IMG/VR virus record: IMGVR_UViG_2561511241_000009
Coordinates: 1 to 42,114 of that record
Reading direction: 5' to 3' (one strand)
DNA length: 42,114 nt
From: a virus
Lineage: Duplodnaviria; Heunggongvirae; Uroviricota; Caudoviricetes
In this document: positions 8,492 to 37,089 of the stretch, one piece after another
Position numbering within the stretch: the stretch's first letter is position 1
Layout of the letters: every line of letters begins with the position of its first letter
The notes under the pieces: generated by a model
Database searches by the model: none
Told to the model about the DNA's origin: nothing
The model's input: the letters and a program-made list of their open reading frames with translations, nothing else
Translations under genes and position numbers: made by a program

Positions 8492-8506
8492 TTACCTTTC
8501 AGGTGA
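8492..8506. promoter_or_regulatory. operator-like palindrome TTACCtttcaGGTgA
   Basis: Member of the recurring (A/T)TTACC-N5-GGTAA(T/A) family; one mismatch; ~40 bp upstream of LexA box. Confidence 0.55.
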
Positions 8507-8543
8507 TTCGCAAAACGTGCTGGATAGCAAATAAATTATTTGA

Positions 8544-8563
8544 TACTGTATATTTATACAGTT
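8544..8563. promoter_or_regulatory. LexA (SOS) box
   Basis: TACTGTATATTTATACAGTT = CTGT-N8-ACAG, near-identical to the E. coli consensus TACTGTATATATATACAGTA; 20 bp upstream of ATG 8583. Confidence 0.8.
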
Positions 8564-8582
8564 ATTGCATGGAGAAGATAAG

Positions 8583-8840
8583 ATGCAGCAGTATCACTAT
8601 CCACTGGAAGACGGATTTACCGAAAGGATTCACACGCCGGGAGGCGTTAGATCACTGGTGGAGGGATCGCACTTGATGAAATTACTCCGGGAGCTCGATA
8701 AGGATGGATTTAATGTCGATGGCCCACTTGCCGAACTGACTGCACTGATTAACTACGTCACCAGCTCACAGATGTCTATGCGGGATCTGCAAACACATCT
8801 CGACTATTGTGCCGAACAATTACGAAAACAAACCAGATAA
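8583..8840 (+). CDS. small antirepressor-like protein (stand-alone antirepressor C-terminal domain)
   Basis: GGAG RBS; 85 aa; strongly similar to the C-terminal 65 aa of the BRO-N protein at 9156-9866 (IHTPGGVRSLVEGSHLMKLL...RDLQTH vs IHSPSGVLGLTENSLLMNLL...RDIQTH). Confidence 0.6.
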   Translation: MQQYHYPLEDGFTERIHTPGGVRSLVEGSHLMKLLRELDKDGFNVDGPLAELTALINYVTSSQMSMRDLQTHLDYCAEQLRKQTR

Positions 8841-8871
8841 GGTTTGCAATTACCAAGTGGAGTGCTTATAT

Positions 8872-8886
8872 TTACCTTTGCGGTAA
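8872..8886. promoter_or_regulatory. operator-like palindrome TTACCtttgcGGTAA
   Basis: Perfect match to the recurring palindrome, in the 300-bp non-coding gap upstream of the BRO-N gene. Confidence 0.55.
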
Positions 8887-8976
8887 ATTTACATCGCACT
8901 CCTCTTGTGCCATAGTAATCGGGCACTGGAAAAATCCAGTGCCGGGATTGGCGTCCCGAGTTACTAAGTGGCGCAT

Positions 8977-8999
8977 ACCACGCCAGACGTGGTTTTTTT
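8977..8999 (+). terminator. putative rho-independent terminator
   Basis: CCACG-ccaga-CGTGG then TTTTTTT. Confidence 0.55.
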
Positions 9000-9155
9000 A
9001 TGCGTTAAGCACAGCCATATCCGAATTATGGTGGGCTGGGCAGGGGTCCGAAAGGACGCCGGTACCACTTAGGCCGGTACGCCAACCTTGTCCAGTTCAC
9101 CACCAGTAATTGGCGTTGCGGTGGTGATTAAAATCACTAAGTGGAGATAACCACC

Positions 9156-9866
9156 ATGGCTAATGCTCAAACTGCCATCTTCAAATTTGAATCTGTTAAC
9201 CCTATCCGTTCCATCATTATCGATGGCCAACCATGGTTTGTAGCCCAAGACGTTTGTAGTGCGCTGCGTATCCAAAACGTCACCCAATCACTTGAAAAAC
9301 TGGATGATGATGAAAGGTCTATGTTCAACATAGGGCATGAACATCGTGCAATTTTTGATAGCCGAGTAAAAGAGCTCAACATCATCTCCGAGTCAGGCCT
9401 CTACACACTGATCCTCCGCTGCCGCGATGCGGTGACACCAGGCACTATCCCCTACCGCTTTCGTAAATGGGTTACAGGTGAGGTTCTTCCTCAGATCCGC
9501 CGCACCGGAAGTTACATTAAAGACTCGCTCCCGCAGGAAGAACGCATAAAGATGGTTGCCGACCAGGTAGCCAACGCCACGGCGTCAGCAGTAATACAGG
9601 CAATGAAGATAGAGAACAAAACCTACAGTGCCCCACTGAAGCCCGGCTACCGCAGCCTGATTCACTCGCCGTCTGGTGTTCTCGGCCTGACGGAGAACTC
9701 ACTGCTGATGAATCTGCTGAACCAGTTGCAGGACGACGGGCACGACGTATCTGGCGCGGCGGCGGAGCTGACCACCATGTTCTGCTACATCGTCGGTGTG
9801 AGCAAATGCCTGCGTGATATCCAGACGCACGCGGAGTACATCAACGACAAGGCAGGGTTCTTCTGA
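9156..9866 (+). CDS. BRO-N domain antirepressor (KilA-C/Ant-type C-terminus)
   Basis: N-terminus IFKFESVNPIRSIIIDGQPWFVAQDVCSAL fits BRO-N pattern; C-terminus paralogous to 8583-8840 product; GGAG RBS before ATG 9156 (track ORF starts at GTG 9141). Confidence 0.7.
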   Translation: MANAQTAIFKFESVNPIRSIIIDGQPWFVAQDVCSALRIQNVTQSLEKLDDDERSMFNIGHEHRAIFDSRVKELNIISESGLYTLILRCRDAVTPGTIPYRFRKWVTGEVLPQIRRTGSYIKDSLPQEERIKMVADQVANATASAVIQAMKIENKTYSAPLKPGYRSLIHSPSGVLGLTENSLLMNLLNQLQDDGHDVSGAAAELTTMFCYIVGVSKCLRDIQTHAEYINDKAGFF

Positions 9867-9875
9867 CAGAACGGC

Positions 9876-9896
9876 GGCACAGGGATGTGCCTTTAA
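9876..9896 (+). terminator. weak terminator-like hairpin
   Basis: GGCACA-ggga-TGTGCC then TTTAAATAATT. Confidence 0.4.
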
Positions 9897-9939
9897 ATAA
9901 TTCTGTACAGATTGCAGACTGTGGGTGAATAGCGTACTA

Positions 9940-9954
9940 TTACCTTAAAGGTAA
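9940..9954. promoter_or_regulatory. operator-like palindrome TTACCttaaaGGTAA
   Basis: Perfect palindrome immediately abutting the AGGAGG RBS of the 9967 ORF. Confidence 0.55.
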
Positions 9955-9966
9955 AGGAGGCGCGAT

Positions 9967-10134
9967 ATGACAGCGTTGAAAAATCGTACTCAGCACAATG
10001 AACAAGCCAAGCAATGCTGGGATGTCATTGGAAAAGTTATGCTTGGCCGCGCAAGCAAAGAGCGCGACAAGGATATGGTTTACCAGACAGGAACATCTTT
10101 CAGCGACTTCAAGGCGGCATTTCGCTCCAAATAG
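9967..10134 (+). CDS. hypothetical small protein (55 aa)
   Basis: AAGGAGG RBS with 6-nt spacer to ATG; open 55-codon frame; absent from ORF track (below 60 aa). Confidence 0.5.
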   Translation: MTALKNRTQHNEQAKQCWDVIGKVMLGRASKERDKDMVYQTGTSFSDFKAAFRSK

Positions 10135-10154
10135 AAGCACATCAGGAGTTTTCC

Positions 10155-10595
10155 TTGAAGTTTAACATTAGAATATCTAATAGTTTTCTACATGGGGAAA
10201 GCAACACCCCTTTCGCTGTAGACGGACCTTTCCTTACTGATGATGAAATAAAAATCATACAAAGTTTTTTAGAGGATGTTGCCAATGGAAGGGCGCTTGT
10301 TGGAAAAAACAAGCCCTCGTGGGTTGATGATAACCATGATAAAATTCCCGGCTCAGACAATTATGAGCAAGAGAATTATTGGCATTATCATTGTGGGCCA
10401 ACATGGTATCCAAACACATTTAAGAATTATACCATTAACTTAAATTTCAACCCTGGCGGAATGCATTCTAATGAATGCATTCATTATGCAAAAAATGATA
10501 ATGAAATTGTCATTGTTGGATTTTCAAGAGAACACATACCTTTCCTTTCATCAGATGGAAATAACAATCCGCTTTTTAATGATGAAGAAGAATAA
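10155..10595 (+). CDS. hypothetical protein, AT-rich cargo gene (TTG start proposed, 146 aa)
   Basis: AGGAG then 6 nt then TTG at 10155; no in-frame ATG before residue ~130; strong AT-rich codon bias (many N/K/I/F); acidic C-tail; no recognisable family. Confidence 0.45.
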   Translation: MKFNIRISNSFLHGESNTPFAVDGPFLTDDEIKIIQSFLEDVANGRALVGKNKPSWVDDNHDKIPGSDNYEQENYWHYHCGPTWYPNTFKNYTINLNFNPGGMHSNECIHYAKNDNEIVIVGFSREHIPFLSSDGNNNPLFNDEEE

Positions 10596-10689
10596 GCCCG
10601 CGCTGCGGGATTTTTTGTGGACGAAACAAAAGTCAGTGCTAACACTCATTGACGCCACATTGAGGTGGCTTATAGATGGAAATTTCACA

Positions 10690-10851
10690 ATGAAAAAAGC
10701 ATTTGCTGCACTGTTCGTTTTGTTGTCTCTGGTAGCTTCAACTCAGGCCTTTGCCGGTCGTTGTCAGCACGACAGCGACACTGCTGCTGACGGCTCCCGC
10801 TGCGGTGGGCGTTCTGCGGATTCCCGCCCGGGTGGCGGTGGCATTCGTTAA
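10690..10851 (+). CDS. hypothetical secreted small protein (53 aa, signal peptide, 2 Cys)
   Basis: MKKAFAALFVLLSLVASTQAFA signal peptide with AxA cleavage site; Gly/Arg/Asp-rich mature part; weak RBS. Confidence 0.4.
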   Translation: MKKAFAALFVLLSLVASTQAFAGRCQHDSDTAADGSRCGGRSADSRPGGGGIR

Positions 10852-10857
10852 AAACAA

Positions 10858-10873
10858 GGCCGCGAAAGCGGCC
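10858..10873 (-). terminator. terminator hairpin for the leftward structural operon
   Basis: GGCCGC-gaaa-GCGGCC; on minus strand followed by TTGTTTTTAA. Confidence 0.6.
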
Positions 10874-10889
10874 TGTGACATGTCACGAC

Positions 10890-11303
10890 TTATAAAGATG
10901 ACTGATATTTTACAACTCTGTTCATGGCATCTTTTTTCACCGAGCTGATATCAGTTCTTATTTTGGCTTCGTCATTACTGCTTATCATGCTATTAATTTT
11001 TTGCACTGACATGCCGTTTCTTTCAGCCATTGCACATACAGCAGCATCGTATGAAGAACTCGCTGCGATGGATATCACCTTGTTACACTCAAACACAGCA
11101 CCTTCAGCAATATCAGATGCCGATGAGGCTGGCTTGGTATAAGTCTTGACGTAGTGATCAATACAACTATCCTTCGCCGTCTTGGCAAGAGAAAAATCCA
11201 TTTTAACTTTGTCGCAATATGCCTTATCAACACCGTCATAAACATCATAGGATGTCGAGCAAGCGGATATCAAAAATACCGATAACAGCAATAATTCCTT
11301 CAT
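10890..11303 (-). CDS. phage lipoprotein (cargo; superinfection-exclusion candidate)
   Basis: Signal peptide plus lipobox (LISAC); AT-rich; last gene of the leftward structural operon. Confidence 0.6.
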   Translation of the reverse strand: MKELLLLSVFLISACSTSYDVYDGVDKAYCDKVKMDFSLAKTAKDSCIDHYVKTYTKPASSASDIAEGAVFECNKVISIAASSSYDAAVCAMAERNGMSVQKINSMISSNDEAKIRTDISSVKKDAMNRVVKYQSSL

Positions 11304-11312
11304 TGTTGTTCC

Positions 11313-13787
11313 TTATTGCGGAGTGACATCCTGAGGTCGCCACCAGTATGTCTGGTTAAACTCTTTCTTCGAACGTTGCTCCATTTTACGCAAATAGCCT
11401 GGTGAAAAATACTCCTGCATCTGATTAAAGATCATGTGATCGAGAGCCGCCTTCAAGTACCAGAGATTCGCACCAGGCATCAAACCTTTCCCAAGCTTAA
11501 CCAGATCACCACCAGTCTGCTCATTCTTCCCTTCCACAGCATTTAACGGTATGCCCTGAGCAATCTTCACTACGTCATCAACCAGACCAGCTACCGGGCC
11601 AAGCATCGACGCTAGTGCGCCGCTCCCGTACCTGGTGTGGTCAGAGAAAAGAAAATCACCATACAACCCTGCCCCACCACCTTTTAAAAATGCATTTATC
11701 CAGAATTTAACCATGTTGTCACCGGTCATTTCTTTTGGATTTCTCCCATTAATAAGATCAGTAATCTGCATGGAAAGAGCACCAAGCATGGTTGTGCTTG
11801 CTAAAAACGTTGCTATATATGCCGCACGCCCACCAGCAGACGGCATCCCCATAGCTCTATGCCAGTGACGCATAACTACCGAGATAGGGAACGATTTAAA
11901 CAGGAAAACACTTCTCGTTAATTCACCTTTCCATGTTCCACGCTGAAGACCAGACCCTACGAACATCCGTTCACGTGCGCCCGGTGTAATAACAGCCATA
12001 TCAACTTCTTCAGTTACGGCACCGAGCAGTTTACGCATTGCCTCAAATTTCACACGTTCAGGCTCACCAAGATGTTTAACTGCTGAATCAGGGATACGCA
12101 TAATGCTTTCCGGTGTCAGCATCGTATTATTACCGTTCCCCCAGTCCTCCTGTTGCGCCAGCTTCCATACGCTCCAGTCTGTGTCAGTAATCCCTTTGCT
12201 TTTCAGGATACGAAAATCATAGTCATCGAGGCTACGAAGGTCTGGTGTCCGTGACACTACTTCTCCCAGGCTTCCCATCATGGTTACGCCATAGGCGCGC
12301 TTGTGCGCATCTGACCATGCTGTAAGCCCACTGGCACGCATTACCGCCGTTGCCGCCCAACGAGACACTGACGGCCCCATATTATCCATCGCCCAGCGGT
12401 TAACGCTGCCAAGTAGAGATTCCATCGCCAGACCAGCGCGGCGCGCCCGCGCAAGTTCTGTACGGTTCGTTGGGTCCATAGCTTCAAGCTGGTTGCGGAA
12501 TAACTGGTTCATTGGAAGGTTGGTAACCTTCGCAGACAGATACATGGTTCCAAGATCAGAGAACGATGACAGCAACGCGGATCCGAGTCTGCTGGCAACC
12601 AGCCAGTTGCGGATATTGTCAGACCATCGCGCGATGTGCGGATTCGCTACAGGCTGTGTCTTTCCGGAAATAAAGTTGTACAGGTTCTCTGTTTTGTTCG
12701 CCAGCCGCTCGACTTTACCGGTTTTACTCGGGTTAGCTGTTGCCGTTTCTGCCTTAACCTGATCAAGAAGGGAGCGGAAAACATGATCGGGGTTTGGACC
12801 ATATGTTTCCACCAGTGCAATATCTTTACTGATACCTTCCAGGTGACCGACCATGATTTCCCATAGAGAGCGATCGCCATAAAGTTGCTGATATTGCAGA
12901 TAGGAATCTGCATCTTTGAAATGTATCTGTCGTGATGCATTACCACGGTTAGCACGTGCGCCGGAAATTCGCATTCCGGTATCAGTAAGCTTATTCAGCC
13001 CACCAGTAGCGATCGTGTTATAAGCCTCTCCAAGAAATGCAGACAACTCGGCATCGTTCATCAGTTGTCCATCGGCTCGGATATAATATTTGCGATCCAG
13101 CTTACCTATAACATCGCTAACCCACTTATCCTTTGATACCGCCCCAACCTTTTCCATAGAATGATGTTGAGGGATCCCCCAGTTTTCGAGATAGCCAATG
13201 TCCCCACCAGCATCATTAAACCGGCGGCGCAGTAGCTCTGTCACTTCTCTCCACGCCTTAGCACCTTTTCTTGCTTTAGCATTGCCAGTATTTTGCCCCC
13301 GCATTTCATATACCAGGTCACGTACGCCCGCTTCATCTTCAAACAGACCAAAAAAGCGAGGATCAACTGCTTCGAATGCCTCCTGCAATTGACTCAATGC
13401 ATAATCACGGGTGGCTTTTGTTCTGGATTCAACAGAGAGGAAATTCGATTTACCGTCTGCATTAAAAGCAATAGTACGGTTAAGAGCGCCAAGTTTCCCA
13501 TCAGCCCCTTGATAGCTATTGATAAATTTATCCAATCTCTGACGTGCGGCTATAGTGAGGGCCACACGACGTTTCTTTAATGCCGCTTCTCGCTGTAATT
13601 CTTCAGATGCCAATTGTGCTGCACGATATAGCCGCTCTGATTCGGAAAGTTGTCTCCACGACATCGGGTCATCACGAGCAATGGAGCGCATATTTCGATA
13701 AATGCGGTCTTCAATGTTCTGTATTTCTCGCGCCGTTAACGTGCGCTGCGCCGCCTGCTGGACCGCTTGTATACATTCCTGTCTCAT
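11313..13787 (-). CDS. large internal virion (core/ejection) protein, 824 aa
   Basis: One of three consecutive large structural-module genes between tail tubular genes and tailspike, as in T7-like/epsilon15-like podoviruses. Confidence 0.5.
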   Translation of the reverse strand: MRQECIQAVQQAAQRTLTAREIQNIEDRIYRNMRSIARDDPMSWRQLSESERLYRAAQLASEELQREAALKKRRVALTIAARQRLDKFINSYQGADGKLGALNRTIAFNADGKSNFLSVESRTKATRDYALSQLQEAFEAVDPRFFGLFEDEAGVRDLVYEMRGQNTGNAKARKGAKAWREVTELLRRRFNDAGGDIGYLENWGIPQHHSMEKVGAVSKDKWVSDVIGKLDRKYYIRADGQLMNDAELSAFLGEAYNTIATGGLNKLTDTGMRISGARANRGNASRQIHFKDADSYLQYQQLYGDRSLWEIMVGHLEGISKDIALVETYGPNPDHVFRSLLDQVKAETATANPSKTGKVERLANKTENLYNFISGKTQPVANPHIARWSDNIRNWLVASRLGSALLSSFSDLGTMYLSAKVTNLPMNQLFRNQLEAMDPTNRTELARARRAGLAMESLLGSVNRWAMDNMGPSVSRWAATAVMRASGLTAWSDAHKRAYGVTMMGSLGEVVSRTPDLRSLDDYDFRILKSKGITDTDWSVWKLAQQEDWGNGNNTMLTPESIMRIPDSAVKHLGEPERVKFEAMRKLLGAVTEEVDMAVITPGARERMFVGSGLQRGTWKGELTRSVFLFKSFPISVVMRHWHRAMGMPSAGGRAAYIATFLASTTMLGALSMQITDLINGRNPKEMTGDNMVKFWINAFLKGGGAGLYGDFLFSDHTRYGSGALASMLGPVAGLVDDVVKIAQGIPLNAVEGKNEQTGGDLVKLGKGLMPGANLWYLKAALDHMIFNQMQEYFSPGYLRKMEQRSKKEFNQTYWWRPQDVTPQ

Positions 13788-13792
13788 TTAAT

Positions 13793-19114: not shown

Positions 19115-21585
19115 CAGAATCCCCCAACAGTAAGGCGAGGAATAACGGCAAGAACAGACAGCGGCAACGGGTCAAGCTGACGGATTTTTACACGTCCGTT
19201 TTTGCCCCAGTTACTGTCCAGTTTCACTTCTACTTTTCCGGTAGCATCATCAACAGGATCATCGTAGAACTCGAATTCACGCTGTGGATATTCGTACCAT
19301 TTACCGCCAGGCGTAGTCGCCCAGATGCCGCGGCTGGCATTCACAACCAGAGTAACGGACGGGATCACCTGTTTTTTGTCCAGCAGCGTTTCCTGTCCGT
19401 TAATGTTGATATCCAGTGTTTCGAATTCAGCAGTTATTGGCAGGCCGATGTGCACTACAGCCCCCGGAGATTCCAGCGTGACGGCACCTCCGGAAACTAC
19501 TTTCTGTGGTTCCACGTTCGCATCAGAGAGAATGTTTACGGTCTGGCCTTCAAGATGAGACAGGCCTCCAAATGTCCGGCGCGCCATCTGCCAGTTCGTG
19601 GTGGCCACATTCCTGAGGGATGGCGGGACGTTCCTGTTAGCACGAACCACTACAGCGGTATTGCTGGTTACAGAAATAATGTCGCAACGTAATTCTTTTG
19701 ACACTTCATCGCCAGTACCAGGATCAGTTCCGGTATAAGGGAACTGTAGTTGCGCGCCGACATCACTACTGGTGAAGTACGCACCACCAGAAACACTGAT
19801 TGTATATTCCGCACGGTAATCCCATTCACCAGAACCACCAGTGATGGTCATCGTTCTGTCAGACGTATTTCTTCCATCATAGCTAAGGCCAGAATCAACA
19901 AAGAAAGCATCTTCATCGCTGGTAAATAAACGGCTGGACAGCCGCTCGATGTATCTCACTGTTTGCCCGTTAACGGTTCGGTTAACGACGAAATACACCG
20001 CATCTTCATTGCCTTCGCTGATACTGCATGTGCTTTCATATTTTCCGGTACTGGATTGTGGTGCCCATGCAAAAACCTGCTGATCACGCAAATAGGTCAT
20101 CACCAGTAATTTACCGTCATCACGAATGCAGAAGGCGCTGGAGTAAGGGACAATCGAGAAGCACCAGTCAACAATGCTGTGCTTCTGAAAAAGATGATTG
20201 GCAAGGATGGTCAGGTCGTTCCCCTGATAGCCGTCAACATCGAATGAGTAGGCCAGATCACGGACAACACTGCCTTTCTCCTGGACGAACAGAGCAATAT
20301 TCGCCACGGCAATTGGTGGGACATTGCTCGAGCCATTTGATCCCTGAGAGCTGAATGCAAATGATGATGGGGCAAGCACTTTGTTCTGGTCGCCAGTGAT
20401 GACGTACTCACCTCCGGAAGTCAGCGCCACCAGCGAACCAACATCAATCAGGTGACGGATCTCATTAACCTGACGCCCGGCATAGGTGTAGATAATTCTG
20501 TCGTCATCCTGCGTAGGATTGCTTTTGCCAAAATCCTTATAATCCCCGGTACGGCTGGCCCAGATAGTCTGAGGGAACGCAGTCGATGCGGCGAAGTAAA
20601 GGCGTTGTTGATAATAAACAACAGTGCCAGGATAACCGTTAATACTGTCCCAGGCATATTTAGCCCATTTATAGCTGGCATTATCCTCGCCAACTACCTG
20701 CGAAGGGATATAGGAAATCACCTCGGCAGTTGCAGTAGTTCCATTTGCAGCAGAGATACGGGCAATGCCAAAACCACTGTGCAGATACTCCCACTCAATG
20801 CCGGTATCATCATCACCGGATCCGCCCCAGCCATCCCATGATGTGCCTTCTGTATGCGAAGGGCGCAAAGTGCCTGTTTTGCCTGCTGTAACGGCGCGAT
20901 AGTAGTTACTGTCTGCACGGCGAATATCGCCAATCGACGTACTCTTACTGGTTTCCCATACCGGCACAGAATCCACTGCAGGCTGTTCCAGATAGAACAA
21001 TTTGCCTACCTGCTCCGCGCCAAAAATTGAGGCGCTTGCCGTTAACGTAATTGTCCCGGTGCTGGCGCTGGCATAAACCGTCACTGACTCGTCAATATTG
21101 ATATCTTCAAATGGCCCGTTCTTCGTTACCACATCAACCAGTTGCCAGTTGTCATGCGCATAGCGGCGCAACTCTTTCGGCGGGTATGCCGGATGAACCA
21201 GCGTAAGCACGTCTGCGCTTTGCGTGAATTTAATTCGGAACAGATCGGCTTCAGTATATGGCGTGGCAATTTCATAAATAACATTGCTGCTGTTCAGCAC
21301 CAACGCACCATCTTTGATAACGCGCATGTACTGGTGTCCGAACTCCAGAGCATAAGTCTGAACCGTCGAGAACTGGAACGGGATTAGGCGGCATTTCCGA
21401 TTTGGGTATTTGGCGGCACCGACAAAACGCGTACCAGGTCGATTCTCAACGCCGCCATACTGCCGCACGATAAAGTTATCGCACTTGCGCAATGCCACCT
21501 GGTACTTCGCCATGTCGATACGACCGTACAACGACGGTCCAATCTCACCACCGGCAAAGCTGGGCTGGATCCAACTGATAGCCAT
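19114..21585 (-). CDS. tail tubular protein B-like (nozzle), 823 aa
   Basis: Size and N-terminus MAISWIQPSFAGGEIGPSL parallel T7 gp12 (MALISQSIKNLKGGISQQP pattern); follows tubular A-like gene. Confidence 0.55.
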   Translation of the reverse strand: MAISWIQPSFAGGEIGPSLYGRIDMAKYQVALRKCDNFIVRQYGGVENRPGTRFVGAAKYPNRKCRLIPFQFSTVQTYALEFGHQYMRVIKDGALVLNSSNVIYEIATPYTEADLFRIKFTQSADVLTLVHPAYPPKELRRYAHDNWQLVDVVTKNGPFEDINIDESVTVYASASTGTITLTASASIFGAEQVGKLFYLEQPAVDSVPVWETSKSTSIGDIRRADSNYYRAVTAGKTGTLRPSHTEGTSWDGWGGSGDDDTGIEWEYLHSGFGIARISAANGTTATAEVISYIPSQVVGEDNASYKWAKYAWDSINGYPGTVVYYQQRLYFAASTAFPQTIWASRTGDYKDFGKSNPTQDDDRIIYTYAGRQVNEIRHLIDVGSLVALTSGGEYVITGDQNKVLAPSSFAFSSQGSNGSSNVPPIAVANIALFVQEKGSVVRDLAYSFDVDGYQGNDLTILANHLFQKHSIVDWCFSIVPYSSAFCIRDDGKLLVMTYLRDQQVFAWAPQSSTGKYESTCSISEGNEDAVYFVVNRTVNGQTVRYIERLSSRLFTSDEDAFFVDSGLSYDGRNTSDRTMTITGGSGEWDYRAEYTISVSGGAYFTSSDVGAQLQFPYTGTDPGTGDEVSKELRCDIISVTSNTAVVVRANRNVPPSLRNVATTNWQMARRTFGGLSHLEGQTVNILSDANVEPQKVVSGGAVTLESPGAVVHIGLPITAEFETLDININGQETLLDKKQVIPSVTLVVNASRGIWATTPGGKWYEYPQREFEFYDDPVDDATGKVEVKLDSNWGKNGRVKIRQLDPLPLSVLAVIPRLTVGGF

Positions 21586-27291: not shown

Positions 27292-27381
27292 ATCAATGAC
27301 TCCGTACGCAATTAAATTATTACCAATTTAACCACATATGATTTATTTATCGTAGGTAGTTGACATTTAACGCACGAATTA

Positions 27382-27396
27382 TTACCTTTCAGGTAA
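27382..27396. promoter_or_regulatory. operator-like palindrome TTACCtttcaGGTAA overlapping a TTGACA promoter
   Basis: TTGACA at 27360-27365; perfect palindrome 17 bp downstream where a -10 would lie. Confidence 0.55.
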
Positions 27397-27718
27397 GCAT
27401 AGAGTGCATTCCTGTTATTAACCTGACTGGCTTGTCGTTAAATTGAACAGGTGGAGTGAGCTTTTATTTTGAGCAGTACGGCGTATGGCACATGCGCCGA
27501 TAGCGGTCTGGATACGTTTAAGGGGCACCCTCCCTTGCTCGGGCAAACGAACCAGGTAGCCGGAATGTGCAAGTCGAGCGGTTTTATGCCGCGCACGGGG
27601 ATTCACCATCCCGGCGATTCGGTGTGACGCCTCGGAAGAGACGAGGGTACAACGATGAGAGCATTTATGGAGCCGCGACAAAGTGTGGTGCCTTAACAGG
27701 CTAAGTGCTCTCAGCGTT

Positions 27719-27795
27719 GTGGCATTAGCTCAGTCGGACAGAGCAACCGCCTTCTAAGCGGTTGGTCGCAGGTTCGAATCCTGCATGCCACGCCA
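27719..27795 (+). tRNA. tRNA-Arg (anticodon UCU)
   Basis: Manual fold: acceptor GTGGCAT/ATGCCAC, D-stem GCTC/GAGC, anticodon stem ACCGC/GCGGT with loop CTTCTAA, T-arm GCAGG-TTCGAAT-CCTGC, discriminator G, encoded CCA. Confidence 0.9.
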
Positions 27796-27838
27796 GAATC
27801 ACGCCTAAGGACCGTGATGCCAGAAGTTCCAGGGGCTT

Positions 27839-27880: not shown

Positions 27881-27958
27881 ACAGCAGGACGCCATTGCGA
27901 TGACTTCATGCTGTAAACCCGTACAGCCACGGAAGGCATAACTCATTGCTTCCAGTTC

Positions 27959-27982
27959 GCCCGGTTCGCCGGGCATTTTTTA
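27959..27982 (+). terminator. second hairpin with T-tract, abutting the RBS of the 27998 gene
   Basis: GCCCGG-ttcg-CCGGGC then ATTTTTT. Confidence 0.55.
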
Positions 27983-27997
27983 AGGTGAGATTAGACT

Positions 27998-28369: not shown

Positions 28370-28459
28370 CACCGTGACATATCACAAACAGCCAGCCTAT
28401 GAGCTGGCTTTGTTTTATCCTCATCAGAGGATATCAACGACATTATCCCCTCAAGCGGA

Positions 28460-29935: not shown

Positions 29936-30528
29936 TCTTCACCACCAGCCTGCTCTATGACGCGGCGCCGGGCGGCGGCCATGCGGTCGGCGATGGTGAC
30001 CGTGCCGGAAACCTCCAGGCGCTCTTTGAACGCGTTAACGTCGACGTGCTTACCAATCAGTTCGAGGTTCTTCATCTTGTCAGGCCATTTAATTTTTTTG
30101 AGGATTGTCTCTATCGAATCCTCGTTCATGTTCATGATGGTCGATGACAGATCAAAGCCACTAAGCGTAGTGCGCCAGATTTTCGGCCACTCGCGGATTG
30201 GCTTAAGACTCCCATCGTCGTTGAGGATATCAATCACGTCCATCTGGTCGATCTCCACCAGGCGCATGAGAACGTAATCAGCACTGACGCGCATTCGTTT
30301 GTTGCGCTCCTCCATCAGCTCGGCAATCCGTTTTTGAATGCGTTCATCGCGCATCATGACACTGGCTTTAACTGCCGCTGTATTTGGGGAGAATCCTGCG
30401 TTAATCGCTGCCTGAGTCTGGTTTTCAGGCGTTTTGATGTATGACTGGCAATAAGCCTCCTGCATTGCTGTTAGTGGCTTAAATTGCGTTGATTTGCGTT
30501 TATAGGTTTTAGGTTCAGCAGGCATCAT
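29932..30528 (-). CDS. terminase small subunit
   Basis: Directly upstream of and overlapping large subunit; GGTGG RBS before Met at 30528 (track ORF extends to 30606). Confidence 0.65.
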   Translation of the reverse strand: MMPAEPKTYKRKSTQFKPLTAMQEAYCQSYIKTPENQTQAAINAGFSPNTAAVKASVMMRDERIQKRIAELMEERNKRMRVSADYVLMRLVEIDQMDVIDILNDDGSLKPIREWPKIWRTTLSGFDLSSTIMNMNEDSIETILKKIKWPDKMKNLELIGKHVDVNAFKERLEVSGTVTIADRMAAARRRVIEQAGGEE

Positions 30529-30646
30529 AACCACCGTGGTAATAGTTACCGTTGTGGTAATAGTACCATGCAAAATAAAGCCGCCATAGTTGGCGGCAGT
30601 ATTCAAAACCCATCAAATTCATCATGCATAATCTACTCGTGACATG

Positions 30647-30985
30647 TCACACTATTAATTTCGTTTCATGCCAGCCTTTAGTCACCCAGCATTGCGAGTC
30701 ACCATTACACGGGCATGAATTCACAGGAACTCTCTCGCCGCACTTACCGCAACGTTTTCTGCTGATCGATTTTATACGCCCGTGCACGCGTGCATCATCC
30801 TGGCGGATCAGTAACGCTATATACTCACCAAATTCGTAAGGCGCACGCCCGGGGCGACGCGTGGCACAGTTACGCTCCAGCATTTCAATTTCCTGAGCAT
30901 CAAGCACAATCTCCAGCTTACGCACACCAGATGCAGCTTGTCTGGCTCTCTGAGCGGCTTTGCGCTCTGCTGCTGATTTAGCCAT
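30647..30985 (-). CDS. hypothetical protein with basic N-terminus and Cys-rich C-terminus (possible regulator)
   Basis: CxxC...CPC cluster suggests a zinc ribbon; no His, so not HNH. Confidence 0.4.
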   Translation of the reverse strand: MAKSAAERKAAQRARQAASGVRKLEIVLDAQEIEMLERNCATRRPGRAPYEFGEYIALLIRQDDARVHGRIKSISRKRCGKCGERVPVNSCPCNGDSQCWVTKGWHETKLIV

Positions 30986-31331: not shown

Positions 31332-31870
31332 TTCGCCTCCTGCGGCGGTTCTGGCAGCGGCATCCAGTACAAGGCGTTCCCTAACCACGATAAAGTGCCG
31401 TCGCTCAACTCCACGTATTCCCCTTGTACCTGTCCTGCCATATACTCGCCGTGCTTTGAATAAATTAAAATCCAATCATCTTGAGGGGGCATTCGCTCAC
31501 TACAGCTTATCCAACCATCCGGAGTTACCGGATGGGGTCCAGCGAACTCGGGCATGTCAGGACCTTTTCTGATAGCTTTAGCCAGCTCCAGCGGGTCATC
31601 GTAAAGCCAGTCGCCAGTTTGTGGGTGATTTGCTTCTGCAAGCTGCGCAGCCCATTCAAGACCATCTTTTTGACCTTGGAGATAATCAAGCGGCAACTCT
31701 TCATGATTACTTGCAGGTTCTGCACTATCAGCTTCGCGCCGCTTCTGTAGCTCTGCTGCCATCGCTCTCACGACTTCAACTGGTGCCCTTGCAGCAAACT
31801 CTATGTTGGTGATCAGCTCATTAAGATATTGCTCGCTGGGATACTGTTTCTTATTGGTAATAGTGGTCAT
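31328..31870 (-). CDS. DUF551-like phage protein
   Basis: C-terminal DGW..W..LP.PP signature typical of DUF551. Confidence 0.45.
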   Translation of the reverse strand: MTTITNKKQYPSEQYLNELITNIEFAARAPVEVVRAMAAELQKRREADSAEPASNHEELPLDYLQGQKDGLEWAAQLAEANHPQTGDWLYDDPLELAKAIRKGPDMPEFAGPHPVTPDGWISCSERMPPQDDWILIYSKHGEYMAGQVQGEYVELSDGTLSWLGNALYWMPLPEPPQEAK

Positions 31871-32382
31871 GCCGCGTTTCCTTCTTTCTTATTAACAATT
31901 ACACCGTCATATATTTCATTAAGGTGCCCTCTCAACTCCATGCGCCTTAATGCAGATAACATGTAATCGCATTCAACCTGCTTATTTCCAGTAAATGGCT
32001 TATCGTCAGGATTACCCCAACAGCAATTACCATTGGGCCACCCATGTACTTTCCGTACTCTTCCGTTAATAACGTGAAGTAATCCCCAGCCGGGAGGTAA
32101 ATCCTCAACTGAAATAATTCCCGGCTCACTAATAAAGAATCGCCAGTCGCCCATGCCAAGTGAGGGATTTTTACGGAAACGCTTTTTTCTATCTGCCAAC
32201 AAGTCAGCACGAGAACACTTCGCCTCTATCAGGCATGATGCTGAATTTCTGAATCCCATAGCATCTGGCTGTTCTCCGGTACTGGTTACAGCAACAAAGC
32301 GGTCATGAAAGCAAACCTTGAACCCGTTGCGCTTAAGGAACTTGTACGCAATCTGACAGAGTTCGCGGTGTGTTAACGCCAT
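31867..32382 (-). CDS. PD-(D/E)xK nuclease-fold-like hypothetical protein
   Basis: Candidate catalytic pattern PDAMGF...CLIEAKCS (D...ExK). Confidence 0.35.
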   Translation of the reverse strand: MALTHRELCQIAYKFLKRNGFKVCFHDRFVAVTSTGEQPDAMGFRNSASCLIEAKCSRADLLADRKKRFRKNPSLGMGDWRFFISEPGIISVEDLPPGWGLLHVINGRVRKVHGWPNGNCCWGNPDDKPFTGNKQVECDYMLSALRRMELRGHLNEIYDGVIVNKKEGNAA

Positions 32383-32386
32383 ATCA

Positions 32387-33478
32387 TCACTCTCCTTTGA
32401 TGCGAATGCCTGCGGCGCGGATTGCAGCGATGACTTCAGAAACTTTGTATGCCATTACCGTTTGGTAATCATCGTGAAAATCTGTTCGATGAAGCATGCT
32501 GCTACGTTCCGGGAGCGATATTTCCCGAGCATCCAGTTCCTTAACGTGTTCCTCCAGTTCGTAGACCCTGCATTGTTCTCTATCATCAATCAGATATAAC
32601 CCAAGACATTCGCTTTCTACCCAACCGCCAAAATCATGATCGTAACGCTCACATGAAAACTCACCGTCACCGTCCTTTGTTGGAATGGTGTAACTATCTA
32701 ATGGGCCACCATATGTCGGCACATTTCCCAATGTTGGATGCTCAATCCACATGAAAAATGCACGTCCGGTTATTGGGCAAATATCTGGCCGCCATTGGTT
32801 ACGAACAGCCTTGGTTTCGGATAATTCTTCAGCGTGTTGTTTTACTTCCTCAAGCTCAACGCGCAGCTTCCCTACCGTAAGCGCAATATCCTCGTTCTCC
32901 TGGTCACGGCGTTTGATGTATTGCTGGTTTCTTTCCCGTTCATCCAGCAGTGCCAGCACGGTTTCTGGTCCGGTCAGAAAAGACTTATTGATAAATCCGT
33001 GATTGAACGCAGCAGCAAGACGGCTTGCGGTGTAGTTAATCCCCTCGTTGCGTGCCTCCGCACGTATTTCAGCCAGGAAAGCGTCGGTGGCTGTGGTTTC
33101 GATATCGTTAATTTCAGGAAGAATCTCTTCCCATGTAGCGATATCGCCATTCAAATGCCACCCGGCAATTCCACTGGAGTTATCCGCAACACTCCGAACG
33201 GCTTCAATAGTTTCATGCATTGCCGCATTCTCCGCCGCCAGCGCCGAAAACTTCTCGTGTGCCAACTTAACAGCCGAATCAGCCTGCTTAATTGACTCAA
33301 TCGCTTTCTGCTGGCCTTCGGCCAGCGCATTAGCACGCGCCAGTTGCACTTCCAGTTGCGTTGCCAAATCGCTGAGCAGCTTTGCCACACTGCGCATATC
33401 AACGGCACCACATTCAGCTTTCAGTTCCGAAGCCATCTCATGCCCGGCGGCAACTAACCCTTTGATATTACTTTCCAT
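32387..33478 (-). CDS. Ead/Ea22-like protein
   Basis: Coiled-coil N-half, acidic Trp/Cys-containing C-half; position in early region. Confidence 0.45.
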   Translation of the reverse strand: MESNIKGLVAAGHEMASELKAECGAVDMRSVAKLLSDLATQLEVQLARANALAEGQQKAIESIKQADSAVKLAHEKFSALAAENAAMHETIEAVRSVADNSSGIAGWHLNGDIATWEEILPEINDIETTATDAFLAEIRAEARNEGINYTASRLAAAFNHGFINKSFLTGPETVLALLDERERNQQYIKRRDQENEDIALTVGKLRVELEEVKQHAEELSETKAVRNQWRPDICPITGRAFFMWIEHPTLGNVPTYGGPLDSYTIPTKDGDGEFSCERYDHDFGGWVESECLGLYLIDDREQCRVYELEEHVKELDAREISLPERSSMLHRTDFHDDYQTVMAYKVSEVIAAIRAAGIRIKGE

Positions 33479-33539
33479 CTTTACCCTCGCTTATCCACAT
33501 AACTTATTGATTACATTGATAACTAAAAAGATCGTCGAT

Positions 33540-33887
33540 TCAGAATTCTTCGATGTTCCAGCCACCACCTGCTTTCTTTGGTTTAACCGTTACCCCGATG
33601 ATTCGGAACGGATACTGATCTGCGGCTACTTTGGTTTTCACCCTGGCGTCGTCGGTCCAGAATCCCCCTTTCACTTCGTGCAGTTCCATCTCTCCGGTGG
33701 CGAGCATCACAGCAAAATCGGGCGTATAGAACGTGTTGTCGGCTAACCGCAGCTTGATACCCTCGAATCGATACCAGGCGATTTCCCCTGCGCGTTTACG
33801 CTGCTCAAGGTGCTGGCAATACGCAGATTCTGTTTTGTTCATCTGGCCTGTTTTGAGTCGACCAAGAGCCTGTATCTGTTTTCTCAT
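33540..33887 (-). CDS. PD-(D/E)xK nuclease-fold protein (DUF1064/VRR-NUC-like)
   Basis: Motif YTPDFAV...MELHEVKGG (D...ExK). Confidence 0.45.
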   Translation of the reverse strand: MRKQIQALGRLKTGQMNKTESAYCQHLEQRKRAGEIAWYRFEGIKLRLADNTFYTPDFAVMLATGEMELHEVKGGFWTDDARVKTKVAADQYPFRIIGVTVKPKKAGGGWNIEEF

Positions 33888-33890
33888 GAT

Positions 33891-33905
33891 TTACCCTTGA
33901 GGTAA
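33891..33905. promoter_or_regulatory. operator-like palindrome TTACCcttgaGGTAA
   Basis: Perfect palindrome overlapping the RBS of the 33887 gene. Confidence 0.5.
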
Positions 33906-33953
33906 TTAAAAACCACATAAGACACAAAATCAATAGAGTTTAGAATATTTTAT

Positions 33954-33968
33954 TACCCAATAGGTAAT
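33954..33968. promoter_or_regulatory. operator-like palindrome TTACCcaataGGTAA
   Basis: Perfect palindrome 63 bp from the previous site. Confidence 0.5.
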
Positions 33969-34004
33969 TATTGAGACGTAAAAAAATGCGCTATCGCGCT
34001 GGTA

Positions 34005-34787
34005 TTACTTGATAAATCCTGCCGCCTTTCCCCGCCTGTATTCCTCCATCAGCCACTGCGCCGGTGTTATTCCCCCCAGGGTGGCGGCGTTAGGCATGCA
34101 CCCGAAACTTCGCCCTGGTGGATGGTAAACGTCTCTCCCTGTGTCCGGAGGCGTACTCATGGGTTCTGGCTTTGCCTGTATGCTGATCACCGGATCGGGT
34201 ATCTGCTGTCCGGAAGCCACCTTTTTCGCCCAATCATCGAGCAGCCTGCGCGCGTGTTTCTCAACCTCAATCTCGCTAAGCTGGCGCTGATACATTGCGC
34301 GGCGGGTATCACATACAACCCAGTACATAACCGGATGTCGCCACGGGAATCTTTCTGGACCACCAGGATATAAACTTTTTTCCTTGCTGTACCGATGAAA
34401 CTCCGCCATCACATCGTCAATGGTGACGCCAAGAACCATCTTGCTGTCTTTGCACCACTTGATGAATTGCCCAGGCGACGGCCAGAACGGAGATTCACTG
34501 GCGCGGGCGTGGCGCATACCAGCGTTAACCTGTTCCATTGTAGTGATCCCATTCTCCAGAAACGCAAGCATCCATTGTTTTCGAAATTCGTTTAGCTTTC
34601 CCTGTTCGCTGATAGCAGCGATGCTGCCTGGAAATGCAGCCTGCAACTGGACAAACATTTCGTTGAAAATTCTTGCAACCTGCTCCTTCTTTGCCCTTTC
34701 ATCGTCAGCAGAAGCAACCACCGTCGAGTGGTCATGCCCACCACGAAAGCGATAGTACTCATTAAGAAGTTCTGGAGTTGATTTCAT
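34005..34787 (-). CDS. lambda P-like replication protein (helicase loader)
   Basis: Segment FRKQWMLAFLENGITTMEQVNAGMRHAR...PSPGQFIKWC matches recalled lambda P core; GAGG RBS before Met at 34787. Confidence 0.65.
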   Translation of the reverse strand: MKSTPELLNEYYRFRGGHDHSTVVASADDERAKKEQVARIFNEMFVQLQAAFPGSIAAISEQGKLNEFRKQWMLAFLENGITTMEQVNAGMRHARASESPFWPSPGQFIKWCKDSKMVLGVTIDDVMAEFHRYSKEKSLYPGGPERFPWRHPVMYWVVCDTRRAMYQRQLSEIEVEKHARRLLDDWAKKVASGQQIPDPVISIQAKPEPMSTPPDTGRDVYHPPGRSFGCMPNAATLGGITPAQWLMEEYRRGKAAGFIK

Positions 34788-35619
34788 CCCACACCTCATC
34801 TATCCAGTCAGTGTTATGCCAGTCAAGGCTCTTTCTGACTTCACCTGATTTCTGTCTACAGAACTGGATGCGCCTTGCCAGCTTCTGCTCCCACTGCGCC
34901 TGATGGTATGCCTTACCCTCAGCCATCCAGTAAATTCTGAACTCTGCAAGTTCCTGTGCCGTTGGCAGACTGTCCAGGTAGATCCCCTGCAATGAGCTTT
35001 TCCGAAGAAAGTCATCTGATGGCTGCCATTGTTCATGCATGACAAATTTGCCTAATTGCCCTGGCCCACCAGGAGGAACAAAGTTATTCATCACGGCGTT
35101 GTTTGCGCCGGGGTCATGAGGCACAGAATCCCCGTTTTTTGTCCTGCTCTCCCTCTCTTGGTTAAATGACTGGTTATATGACTGGTTCTGGATCCCGTTT
35201 TTGGGATCATTCAACATCCCGTTTTTGGGATCATTCAACATCCCGTTTTTGGGATCATTCAACATCCCGTTTTTGGGTATATTCCCGTTTTCGGTAACAT
35301 TACCGTTTTCGGGTTCATTGCCCCCCTCCCGGTTGCCTTTAATGTTCCCGTTTTTGGTTATATTAAGAGAGAAAACCCGCACTCTTTTTGTCGCTCCCTT
35401 TCTCTCTCCGGTATCTGAAATAAGCCCCATTTTCATGAGCGATATAAGCCCGGCCTGCACGGTTTTTTTATTCAGACAAGTGTCTTTAACGAGACGTTCT
35501 ATGCTGGGGTAGCAGAGGTTATATTCATCGGCTCTGTCAGCCATCGAGAGCAGTATGAGCTTTAATGACGAGCTACCTGGATCTGTCTCCCAGGCCCAAT
35601 CTGTTGCATGTCTGCTCAT
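34762..35619 (-). CDS. lambda O-like replication initiator with internal iterons
   Basis: N-terminal wHTH-like domain, repeat-encoded linker (PKNGMLND x3), C-terminal domain; directly upstream of P-like gene. Confidence 0.6.
   Translation of the reverse strand: MSRHATDWAWETDPGSSSLKLILLSMADRADEYNLCYPSIERLVKDTCLNKKTVQAGLISLMKMGLISDTGERKGATKRVRVFSLNITKNGNIKGNREGGNEPENGNVTENGNIPKNGMLNDPKNGMLNDPKNGMLNDPKNGIQNQSYNQSFNQERESRTKNGDSVPHDPGANNAVMNNFVPPGGPGQLGKFVMHEQWQPSDDFLRKSSLQGIYLDSLPTAQELAEFRIYWMAEGKAYHQAQWEQKLARRIQFCRQKSGEVRKSLDWHNTDWIDEVWDEINSRTS
35192..35320. repeat. iteron array (candidate replication origin) inside the O-like gene
   Basis: Three perfect tandem 24-bp units ATCCCGTTTTTGGGATCATTCAAC (35192-35263) plus degenerate copies; each unit contains the palindrome ATCCC-N6-GGGAT. 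Confidence 0.65.
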
Positions 35620-35634
35620 GATTAATCTCCGCTA

Positions 35635-35835
35635 TCAGCTTGAATGTTGTGGGGAGGAATTAATCATGATCTGCTTAATCTCTGCCCTGATGCGACGGTT
35701 TGATTCCATGGTGCACTCAACACAGTGTCCGTTGTAAACCCAGCGTTCACTGTCATGTCCGTGCTTACATGGTTTTCCGGTGTAGTAGCGTTTAAGTCCG
35801 CGCTTTGCGGCATCAATACGTGTAATGATTTCCAT
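35635..35835 (-). CDS. small zinc-ribbon protein (hypothetical regulator)
   Basis: CKHGH...CVEC Cys/His cluster; AGGG RBS before Met at 35835. Confidence 0.4.
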   Translation of the reverse strand: MEIITRIDAAKRGLKRYYTGKPCKHGHDSERWVYNGHCVECTMESNRRIRAEIKQIMINSSPQHSS

Positions 35836-35925
35836 GGTAAGCCCTGTTATTAGTATTGGGATTACGGTCATTTTGTGCTGACACAAAAAAAAGATCAACC
35901 AGATTTGGTTTTTTATTACCTTTGA

Positions 35926-35940
35926 GGTACGAATAGATAT
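35926..35940. promoter_or_regulatory. operator-like palindrome TTACCtttgaGGTAc
   Basis: One mismatch; between Cro-like and zinc-ribbon genes. Confidence 0.45.
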
Positions 35941-35985
35941 GAAAAGACCGCCGGGTGGCGGTCTACAGAGGGTTGTAGCTGGATA

Positions 35986-36216
35986 TCATGAGTAGAAGAA
36001 GTATGCCAGTTCTGCTTTTGAGCGCAGCCATTGTCTTGTTTTACAGGCTTTAAAAAGCCCATTCATCAATACTTTACCTGGCATTTTGCGCTTACCTGTT
36101 AAGTGAGTATGGATATAGTGACTCGTCGTTCCGGCTTCCTGTGCGAAGGCTTCACGCTCATCCGGAGTAAGTGCAAGCCAGTGCTTTTTGAAATCGAAAT
36201 GTCCGTTATCGCTCAT
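35986..36216 (-). CDS. Cro-like HTH regulator (YdaS/DicC-like)
   Basis: 76 aa; first gene of leftward early operon, divergent from repressor; putative HTH AFAQEAGTTSHYIHTHL. Confidence 0.5.
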   Translation of the reverse strand: MSDNGHFDFKKHWLALTPDEREAFAQEAGTTSHYIHTHLTGKRKMPGKVLMNGLFKACKTRQWLRSKAELAYFFYS

Positions 36217-36252
36217 AGCTATTGCCTGATATTTATTTCAGATAATAAATAT

Positions 36253-36315
36253 TCACCCATAAGGTAACAAAAATCAAGGATAGTTACCTATGAGGTGCAT
36301 TTACCTGTTGGGTAA
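36253..36315. promoter_or_regulatory. OR-like operator cluster (three palindromes) in the divergent repressor/cro region
   Basis: TCACCcataaGGTAA (36253-36267), TTACCtatgaGGTgc (36284-36298), TTACCtgttgGGTAA (36301-36315). Confidence 0.65.
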
Positions 36316-36370
36316 TATTGCTTTAAATTGAATCATCTACTGATTCATATATGAGACGATTTTCCAGAAA

Positions 36371-36955
36371 ATGAAAAGTATCCAGGACGTCCGCAGGCAA
36401 AATCTCAACGACTTGATCGACCGTGAATTCAATGGTGTTCAGACGCGGATGGCAGAAAAACTTGGAACTCAGGCAAATCTGGTAAACCGCTGGGCTCTTG
36501 GCAAGAAGGTTATCGGCGACCAAGTTGCACGAAAAATTGAAGCTGCCGCCAATAAACCCCGTAACTGGCTTGATATCGATCGCTCGCTTTCTCAGGAAGG
36601 TTTTCAGCCTGTCGGCCCAAGCGACATTGGCCAGCTGGCGGCTCACAACCTGGAACGCTGGATGAGCGAAAGCCGCGACCTTTCAACACAGGGAAAACTT
36701 CACCGCGCATCCGGCGTAGCCCAGGTGACAATCAGCCGCCTGTTAAACAATGAGGTCAGCGTTTCCATTTCCACCCTGGAGAATGTTGCATCCGCATTCG
36801 GGCGTCACGGCTATGAATTACTGATTCACCCGCACGACCCTGCGACCATCAACTATGATCGCTCGCGCTACGCATTGTTACCCGAAACCGAGAAAGCAAA
36901 GATCGAAAGTTACATTGAATTTGTCATCAACCAGAACGAAAAAAACAAACAATAA
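36371..36955 (+). CDS. phage repressor, tandem HTH (XRE-type), no S24 peptidase domain
   Basis: Two HTH-like segments (TRMAEKLGTQANLVNRW and ASGVAQVTISRLLNNEV); no Ala-Gly/Ser-Lys autocleavage module; divergent from Cro-like gene. Confidence 0.6.
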   Translation: MKSIQDVRRQNLNDLIDREFNGVQTRMAEKLGTQANLVNRWALGKKVIGDQVARKIEAAANKPRNWLDIDRSLSQEGFQPVGPSDIGQLAAHNLERWMSESRDLSTQGKLHRASGVAQVTISRLLNNEVSVSISTLENVASAFGRHGYELLIHPHDPATINYDRSRYALLPETEKAKIESYIEFVINQNEKNKQ

Positions 36956-36977
36956 AACCATATTTTTCAGTAAGTAA

Positions 36978-36999
36978 GCCGCCTTATGGCGGCTTTTTT
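36978..36999 (+). terminator. rho-independent terminator after repressor gene
   Basis: GCCGCC-ttat-GGCGGC then TTTTTT. Confidence 0.8.
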
Positions 37000-37012
37000 A
37001 TTGCCTATTCGA

Positions 37013-37027
37013 TTACCTAACGGGTAA
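37013..37027. promoter_or_regulatory. OL-like operator palindrome TTACCtaacgGGTAA
   Basis: Perfect palindrome between repressor terminator and rightward operon. Confidence 0.6.
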
Positions 37028-37074
37028 TTTTTTTAACTCATATCTATTGACATCAAACCATATACGCATAATTA

Positions 37075-37089
37075 TTACCTCAACGGTAA
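37075..37089. promoter_or_regulatory. OL-like operator palindrome TTACCtcaacGGTAA
   Basis: Perfect palindrome 20 bp upstream of the RBS of ORF 37109. Confidence 0.6.

Follow-up and report, generated by a model that had tools for sequence, protein, structure and literature searches.

Intergenic 17-bp palindromes as predicted operators of the maintenance repressor in an epsilon15/phiV10-type prophage of Escherichia coli

What is the role of a 17-bp palindrome, (A/T)TTACC-N5-GGTAA(T/A), that recurs in the DNA of IMG/VR virus record IMGVR_UViG_2561511241_000009? From about position 4200 to its right end, this stretch of 42,114 nucleotides (the window, below) consists of an epsilon15/phiV10-type prophage (genus Uetakevirus) inserted at guaA. 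A preliminary description, made from the sequence alone, had listed 12 copies and proposed that the phage repressor acts through them. With a rough probability of 0.85, we likewise consider the palindromes to be operators of Rep, the predicted maintenance repressor of this prophage, because of the homology of Rep and of its antirepressor Ant to those of phage SPC32H, the conservation of site positions, the overlap of the sites with promoters and the features labelled 'repressor' in the epsilon15 record.

The palindrome is a perfect dyad. Its core, TTACCNNNNNGGTAA (TTACC-N5-GGTAA), has nine exact matches in the window where 0.02 are expected; they start at 8872, 9940, 27382, 30546, 33891, 33953, 36301, 37013 and 37075. 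Thirteen matches are obtained if one mismatch is allowed (0.66 expected), the additional ones being 8492, 30528, 35916 and 36253, and one more site, 36284, has two mismatches. All 15 sites found in the window (the fifteenth is a weak candidate at 6218) are intergenic, with zero overlap with gene calls, and intergenic DNA makes up 8.2% of the prophage; shuffling of intergenic sequence only gave 0.003 exact and 0.13 one-mismatch matches, as against the 9 and 13 observed. A position weight matrix (PWM) was trained solely on the sites of phages epsilon15, SPC32H and Tyrion, the window being excluded from training. It returned 12 matches in the window at 18-26 bits, whereas the shuffle maximum averages 10.9 bits (95th percentile 14.9). 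The 12 copies listed originally are thus real and intergenic as had been stated, with two positions corrected (33954 to 33953 and 35926 to 35916), but the sites at 30528 and 30546 near terS and the weak one at 6218 had been missed; the strong enrichment also stands, with nine exact matches instead of the eight reported. A sixteenth site, on the minus strand (ATTACCTTAAAGGTATA), lies 43 nt past window position 42114, upstream of int, and is also present in epsilon15, SPC32H and Tyrion. The 15 sites of the window are as follows (coordinates of the 17-bp palindrome, which begins one base before the core, so that a site may be cited by either start; being palindromes, they are given without strand):

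6217-6233: weak candidate operator ahead of the lysis cassette; PWM 13.0 bits, alone not significant; matches the position of sites at epsilon15 24704, SPC32H 24782 and Tyrion 26408
8491-8507: operator in the gap that separates the tail-fibre gene (minus strand) from the small ant gene (plus strand); one mismatch; epsilon15 counterpart (19895-19911) labelled 'repressor'
8871-8887: operator at the promoter of the isrK-like RNA/C4 RNA/Bro-N-Ant unit; exact; counterparts Tyrion 21393 and TL-2011b 10386
9939-9955: operator at the cargo operon (9967-10595); exact; overlaps the −10, then the ribosome-binding site; TL-2011b carries the same cargo module plus site (11438)
27381-27397: operator separating the head operon (minus strand) from the tRNA-Arg/gp49_66-family unit (plus strand); exact; epsilon15 counterpart (2931-2947) labelled 'repressor'
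30527-30543: operator, second of the terS tandem; one mismatch; PWM 10.9 bits; 18 bp downstream of the first, with its end 2 nt ahead of the start codon of terS; counterparts epsilon15 30 and Tyrion 85
30545-30561: operator, first of the terS tandem; exact; overlaps an extended −10; epsilon15 counterpart (12-27) labelled 'repressor' in the record
33890-33906: operator, proximal, of the DUF1064/nin-like unit; exact; 62 bp from 33952; overlaps the −10, the right half reaching into the ribosome-binding site
33952-33968: operator, distal, of the second leftward unit (DUF1064/nin-like genes); exact; after the replication-gene terminator; top PWM score (26.4 bits)
35915-35931: operator past the terminator of the 76-amino-acid gene; one mismatch; its variant half-site CGTACC is also kept at Tyrion 35365
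36252-36268: operator, OR-like, in the spacer of the leftward promoter; one mismatch
36283-36299: operator, OR-like, middle; two mismatches; PWM 12.2 bits; abuts the 36300 operator; position matches exact sites at epsilon15 33358 and SPC32H 34407
36300-36316: operator, OR-like, nearest rep; exact; counterparts epsilon15 33341, SPC32H 34390 and Tyrion 34980
37012-37028: operator, PL-like, distal; exact; 62 bp upstream of the 37074 operator, just past the rep terminator
37074-37090: operator, PL-like, promoter-proximal, of the rightward recombination operon; exact; overlaps −10/+1

With up to one mismatch, the motif occurs 15 times in epsilon15, 18 times in SPC32H and 15 times in Tyrion (about 0.5-0.75 expected), and the great majority of these sites are at positions matching those of the window: the terS tandem, upstream of the head operon, the ant/tail-fibre gap, ahead of the lysis genes and of int, downstream of rep, the gap between rep and the divergent gene, and the pair after the replication genes. 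The motif scan of the prophage and its relatives, which had been set beforehand as a check, therefore yielded both enrichment over shuffles and conservation. When 12 sites of the window are compared with their matched epsilon15 counterparts, identity is 93% in the half-sites, 47% in the central five bases and 56% in the flanks. The RefSeq record of epsilon15 holds seven protein_bind features designated 'repressor / lysogeny'; all are instances of the motif, among them the sites at terS, at the head operon and between tail fibre and ant. Records of the phiV10 type are without operator annotation, and a literature search on motif strings gave nothing relevant; the epsilon15 paper reportedly gives the consensus ATTACCWDWWNGGTAAT. 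Since the sites are marked in the epsilon15 annotation and the structure and function of the repressor are dealt with in the work on SPC32H, novelty is low: for this genus the motif, the protein that binds it and the scatter of the sites are on record and are not a discovery. What may be incremental are the lineage-specific sites at the Bro-Ant and cargo units, the constancy of the promoter register and of the 62-bp pairs, and the view that Rep acts directly on late operons.

The genes of the predicted binding protein and of other regulators discussed below are listed here, together with the LexA box of ant:

36371-36955, plus strand: rep, prophage repressor gene; N-terminal helix-turn-helix (HTH), second HTH_3 domain and C-terminal tail
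8584-8841, plus strand: ant, small antirepressor of the SPC32H type; matches PDB 5D50_E, 'Anti-repressor protein' (E = 5.5e-47)
8546-8561, no strand: near-consensus LexA box CTGTATATTTATACAG within the ant promoter, downstream of its −35 (TTGATA) and upstream of its −10
9156-9866, plus strand: second antirepressor, Bro-N plus an Ant-like C-terminal domain; residues 155-231 match 5D50_E (E = 2.2e-13)
35986-36216, minus strand: first gene of the leftward operon (76 amino acids), candidate Cro-like; matches phrog_35, 'transcriptional repressor' (E = 9.5e-13)

The product of 36371-36955, already taken for the repressor in the preliminary description, aligns along its full length (residues 1-190) with the crystallised Repressor of SPC32H (PDB 5D50_A, E = 4e-42), and its sequence is the same as that of phiV10 gp40 (100% identity). 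Pfam finds HTH_3 and YdaS-type HTH in it; these are its only families there, the self-cleavage domain Peptidase_S24 not being found. In an alignment with Rep of epsilon15, SPC32H and Tyrion, the phiV10 sequence type is 43% identical to epsilon15/SPC32H Rep; despite this overall identity, the N-terminal HTH is invariant, including the putative recognition helix NLVNRW, which fits the unchanged operator half-sites. The repressor of phage vB_EcoP_ZX5 (ORF21) is stated to have the same sequence as Rep, and its overexpression abolished free phage and lowered endolysin and holin transcripts by ~99.99% (PMC9782041). As to architecture, SPC32H Rep is described as a tetramer that binds palindromic DNA sites, its DNA-binding pairs forming across dimers (PMC9638917), and its tetramerisation domain as p53-like, a type linked to DNA looping (PMC9986798).

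The LexA box of the ant promoter is conserved in relatives. The closest known system is the Rep/Ant/LexA immunity switch of epsilon15-like phages (Salmonella phages epsilon15 and SPC32H, E. coli phages phiV10 and vB_EcoP_ZX5), to which Rep and Ant of the prophage are homologous. Studies of SPC32H have reportedly worked out this Rep-Ant-LexA switch in structure and function. The LexA-controlled small Ant, which by homology would drive induction, had not been recognised in the preliminary description. In TL-2011b the homologue of the second antirepressor is annotated as a Bro-N domain protein. It follows from the Bro-N/Ant fusion that the prophage holds two Ant-type proteins, which appear to be controlled differently, one by LexA and the other by Rep and a C4 RNA.

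Could the sites be bound mainly by another regulator of the phage? Two candidates are at hand: the 76-amino-acid protein, which matches a PHROG of transcriptional repressors and would share its operators with the repressor as lambdoid Cro does with CI, and the phrog_536 protein of 112 amino acids (30647-30985), whose gene is just upstream of the terS operators. The label 'Cro-like' for the former is reasonable but unproven; it is based on the PHROG match, and neither Pfam nor PDB gave a match. We nevertheless find it improbable that either is the main occupant, because the epsilon15 annotation gives the sites to the repressor, SPC32H Rep is reported on palindromic sites in the source cited above, the invariant recognition helix of Rep parallels the invariant half-sites, and the overexpressed identical repressor shuts off lysis-gene transcripts; moreover, sharing of the sites by the Cro-like protein would be compatible with Rep as their main ligand. 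The 76-amino-acid gene was also considered as an SPC32H-type Ant on account of a CTG-N10-CAG box at 36226, a candidate dropped because its product has no PDB match and Ant is encoded at 8584-8841. That weak LexA-like box (CTGATATTTATTTCAG, 36226-36241) is just upstream of the start of the gene; Tyrion retains it, epsilon15 and SPC32H do not.

The operators typically overlap the −10/+1 region of σ70-like promoters. At the PL-like promoter (TTGACA-17-AATTAT, 37047-37075), the last two bases of the −10 are the first two of the 37074 operator, and the same register is found on the minus strand at 33890 (TTGATT-17-TTTAAT). The other registers are TTGCAA-17-TATATT (8844-8872) at 8871; TTGCAG-17-TACTAT at 9939, where the operator overlaps the −10; an extended −10, TGgTACTAT, on the minus strand at 30545, kept as TGnTACTAT in four phages; and TTGACA-17-TACCTT at 27381, a conserved promoter directed rightward toward the tRNA gene, whose −10 is covered by the operator. 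The 36252 operator is inside the spacer of TTGTTA-17-TATTAT (36270-36242, minus strand), directed toward the 76-amino-acid gene. Registers were checked for conservation at 37074, 33890, 30545 and 27381, and these four are conserved in all four phages (the prophage, epsilon15, SPC32H and Tyrion). At the PL-like and nin-like promoters, a second operator is found exactly 62 bp upstream, in each case directly after a terminator. This spacing, which corresponds to about six helical turns, is observed in 8/8 operator pairs of the four phages. The terminator of the replication genes, which precedes the 33952 operator, is annotated in phiV10, and two others were located:

36976-36995: rep terminator
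35964-35945: terminator after the 76-amino-acid gene

Because SPC32H Rep is reported to bind palindromes as a tetramer and to have a fold linked to looping, and the spacing is 62 bp, a single Rep tetramer holding both operators of a pair would be the natural model.

An RNA-level role had also been entertained, on the grounds that the sites at 9940 and 33891 abut ribosome-binding sites: the palindromes would form hairpins that sequester ribosome-binding sites or signal processing or termination. Every 21-mer can indeed form a hairpin of 4-8 bp, but these are weak (−2.0 to −6.4 kcal/mol), and the proximity to ribosome-binding sites is accounted for by very short leaders. The variant sites alter one arm (GGTGA at 8492, TCACC at 36253, GGTAC at 35916, TAACC at 30528) without a compensating change, and it is the half-site sequence itself that is 93% conserved, which is the signature of protein recognition and not of a stem. 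In addition, the −10 ends inside the palindrome at six sites, so that the predicted transcript starts within it and is without the left arm, and several sites (37013, 33953) are upstream of the −35. Given the weak folds, the lack of compensatory changes and the predicted starts inside the palindrome, an RNA role is unsupported and, in our estimate, very improbable. The idea that the motif is a phage-specific promoter or initiation element for RNA polymerase or a sigma-like factor draws on the fixed register with the −10 at six or more sites, but is just as hard to credit since the distal sites 37013 and 33953 precede the −35, no single promoter register accommodates 35916 and the tandem sites at OR and terS, a perfect dyad is typical of dimeric HTH binding, and the biology of the homologous Rep is known.

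Several points weigh against the assignment of the palindromes to Rep. Binding of Rep to these sites is predicted through homology. The sites 6218, 36284 and 30528 score no better than the best shuffled matches; their PWM values being within the range of the shuffle maximum, they rest on conserved position and not on score. No convincing conserved promoter with its −10 overlapping the operator was found at 35916, on the tail-fibre side of 8492 or at 6218, and the same applies to the head-operon side of 27382; a possible plus-strand promoter near 8492 (TAGACA-17-GATATT, 8465-8493) is not conserved in epsilon15. As there is no clear promoter at 35915, this operator is probably an auxiliary or roadblock site. 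Repression in the lysogen of a toxin-like, moron-like cargo operon would be unusual. Finally, the 76-amino-acid Cro-like protein may bind the same sites, which would be additive to Rep binding and would not contradict it.

If the palindromes are Rep operators, the switch might work as follows. The N-terminal HTH domains of Rep, a tetramer by homology, would bind each palindrome as a pair, and Rep on its operator would block RNA polymerase, as the overlap of most operators with the −10/+1 of a σ70-type promoter suggests; where two operators are 62 bp apart, a tetramer sitting on both would clamp the promoter. The prophage would consist of terminator-insulated transcription units, almost each with its own operator: those for recombination, for the Cro-like protein and replication, for DUF1064/nin-like genes, for terS and late functions and for head proteins and the tRNA, and further the tail-fibre/ant, lysis cassette, int, Bro-Ant and cargo units. 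Upon DNA damage LexA would leave the ant promoter, and Ant would bind Rep and strip it off the DNA, as may be expected from the homology with SPC32H, whereby all units would be released together. They would include the Rep-controlled Bro-Ant unit, so that the second antirepressor could reinforce the switch.

The other sites had been correctly placed at the two antirepressor genes, at the cargo operon, at the promoter on the tRNA side and within the leftward operon. The proposal that the repressor directly silences cargo, antirepressor and early loci is supported at the level of sequence, but the network would be wider, extending to terS, the head region, lysis, tail fibre and int. A more radical version, a flat design in which all units, including packaging, head, tail-fibre, lysis and int, are insulated and directly repressed by Rep, with no antitermination or late-activator cascade, and in which the 62-bp clamps fit 'trans' binding by the tetramer, is tentative, and we hold it to be rather doubtful. 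No N or Q antiterminator was noted in the prophage, although no systematic search for one was made.

The stretch 8923-9107, which separates the 8871 operator from the gene for Bro-N-Ant, contains an isrK-like small RNA (Rfam RF01394, 66 bits) and, at 9024-9107, a C4 antisense RNA (RF01695, 66 bits; gathering score 45). Two copies of CTAAGTGG, at 8964-8971 and 9137-9144, are complementary to a segment of the C4 RNA, CCACTTAG (9065-9072); the copy at 9137-9144 overlaps the ribosome-binding site of Bro-Ant. The cargo operon (9967-10595) encodes a 55-amino-acid protein (phrog_8607) and a phrog_5954 protein, neither with a Pfam match; in TL-2011b, the homologue of the latter is annotated as a YafO-family toxin (RefSeq). 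A gene downstream of the 27381 operator is:

27719-27795: tRNA-Arg(TCT) gene, downstream of the TTGACA promoter at 27360 with predicted Rep control

It is at the same place in SPC32H and is not in epsilon15. Three tandem 24-bp repeats (TGGGATCATTCAACATCCCGTTTT) at 35202-35269, inside the DnaT-like replication gene, are probably origin iterons.

A second palindrome, CCATATATGG, is found near some operators, but is not regarded as established since its enrichment is weak (3 observed against 1.09 expected in the window, 2 against 1.09 in SPC32H). Similar palindromes followed by TTT, at 8454-8463 and 6178-6187, are ~40 nt from the operators of the tail-fibre and lysis genes and recur at matching places in relatives; they could be a late-promoter element. 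In the epsilon15 record, an IHF site is marked in the tail-fibre/ant region.

The left end of the window (1 to ~4200) is E. coli chromosome and not phage, according to Pfam and the annotation of TL-2011b, a phage record which counts the same flank as phage DNA. It holds:

372-2180: MASE1-EAL (pdeF-like) gene, host flank
2532-4107: small genes, host flank

The right end coincides exactly with the int start codon. In E. coli UMNK88, beyond int lie the att core and the 3' end of guaA, where phages of the epsilon15/phiV10 group are known to integrate (PMC9782041). The immunity region (35900-37110, with rep and the OR-like and OL-like operators) is 100% identical in UMNK88 and is present at a coverage of at least 80% in 540 of 5426 complete E. 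coli genomes (~10%), mostly at 95-99% identity. A list of sites with promoter registers should aid in predicting which prophage genes are silent in the lysogen, including the toxin-like cargo operon and the second antirepressor, and the conserved 62-bp pairs offer a simple handle on how the Rep tetramer engages DNA.

How does this arrangement compare with known systems? Its closest kin are epsilon15 and SPC32H, which carry ATTACC-N5-GGTAAT at matching positions, the window sites including those at the positions annotated for the epsilon15 repressor; this prophage differs from them by its lineage-specific sites at the Bro-N-Ant unit and the cargo operon, by having two PL-like sites instead of three and by a Rep of the phiV10 type. 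With lambda CI it shares, as had been pointed out before, three operators between the divergent rep and Cro-like genes (36252-36316) and two just past the rep terminator (37012-37090). The latter two flank a strong promoter that drives the recombination genes, and 17-bp dyad sites that overlap promoters are a further common trait. Unlike CI, Rep is without a Peptidase_S24 domain and, by analogy with its relatives, would be inactivated by an antirepressor; and whereas lambda has operators at two loci, here they are spread over about ten, terminator-insulated units each then having their own.

Dispersed operators are also a feature of P1 and P7, and in P1 one repressor, C1, controls many unlinked operons through them. 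The P1 immI region (c4 antisense RNA - icd - ant) has a parallel in the operator/promoter at 8844-8887, the C4 RNA and the antirepressor at 9156-9866. The operators of P1 are asymmetric, however, and C1, which is not known to be related to Rep, controls late genes indirectly, whereas the sites described here are perfect dyads located directly at late operons; no P1 C1-like match appeared for Rep in structure and Pfam searches. The gp71 stoperators of mycobacteriophage L5 resemble the present sites in being spread across the whole genome. They are asymmetric, orientation-dependent, inside transcription units and block elongation; in contrast, the sites of this prophage are symmetric, strictly intergenic and mostly promoter-overlapping. 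Since they are symmetric and at promoters, they are neither operators of the P1 C1 kind nor L5 stoperators. The last likeness is with Rco of plasmid pLS20 and other loopers with p53-like domains, as SPC32H Rep has the same tetramerisation fold (PMC9986798), and the conserved 62-bp pairs are what a bridging tetramer would need; at so short a distance, such bridging would result in clamping of the promoter and not in long loops.

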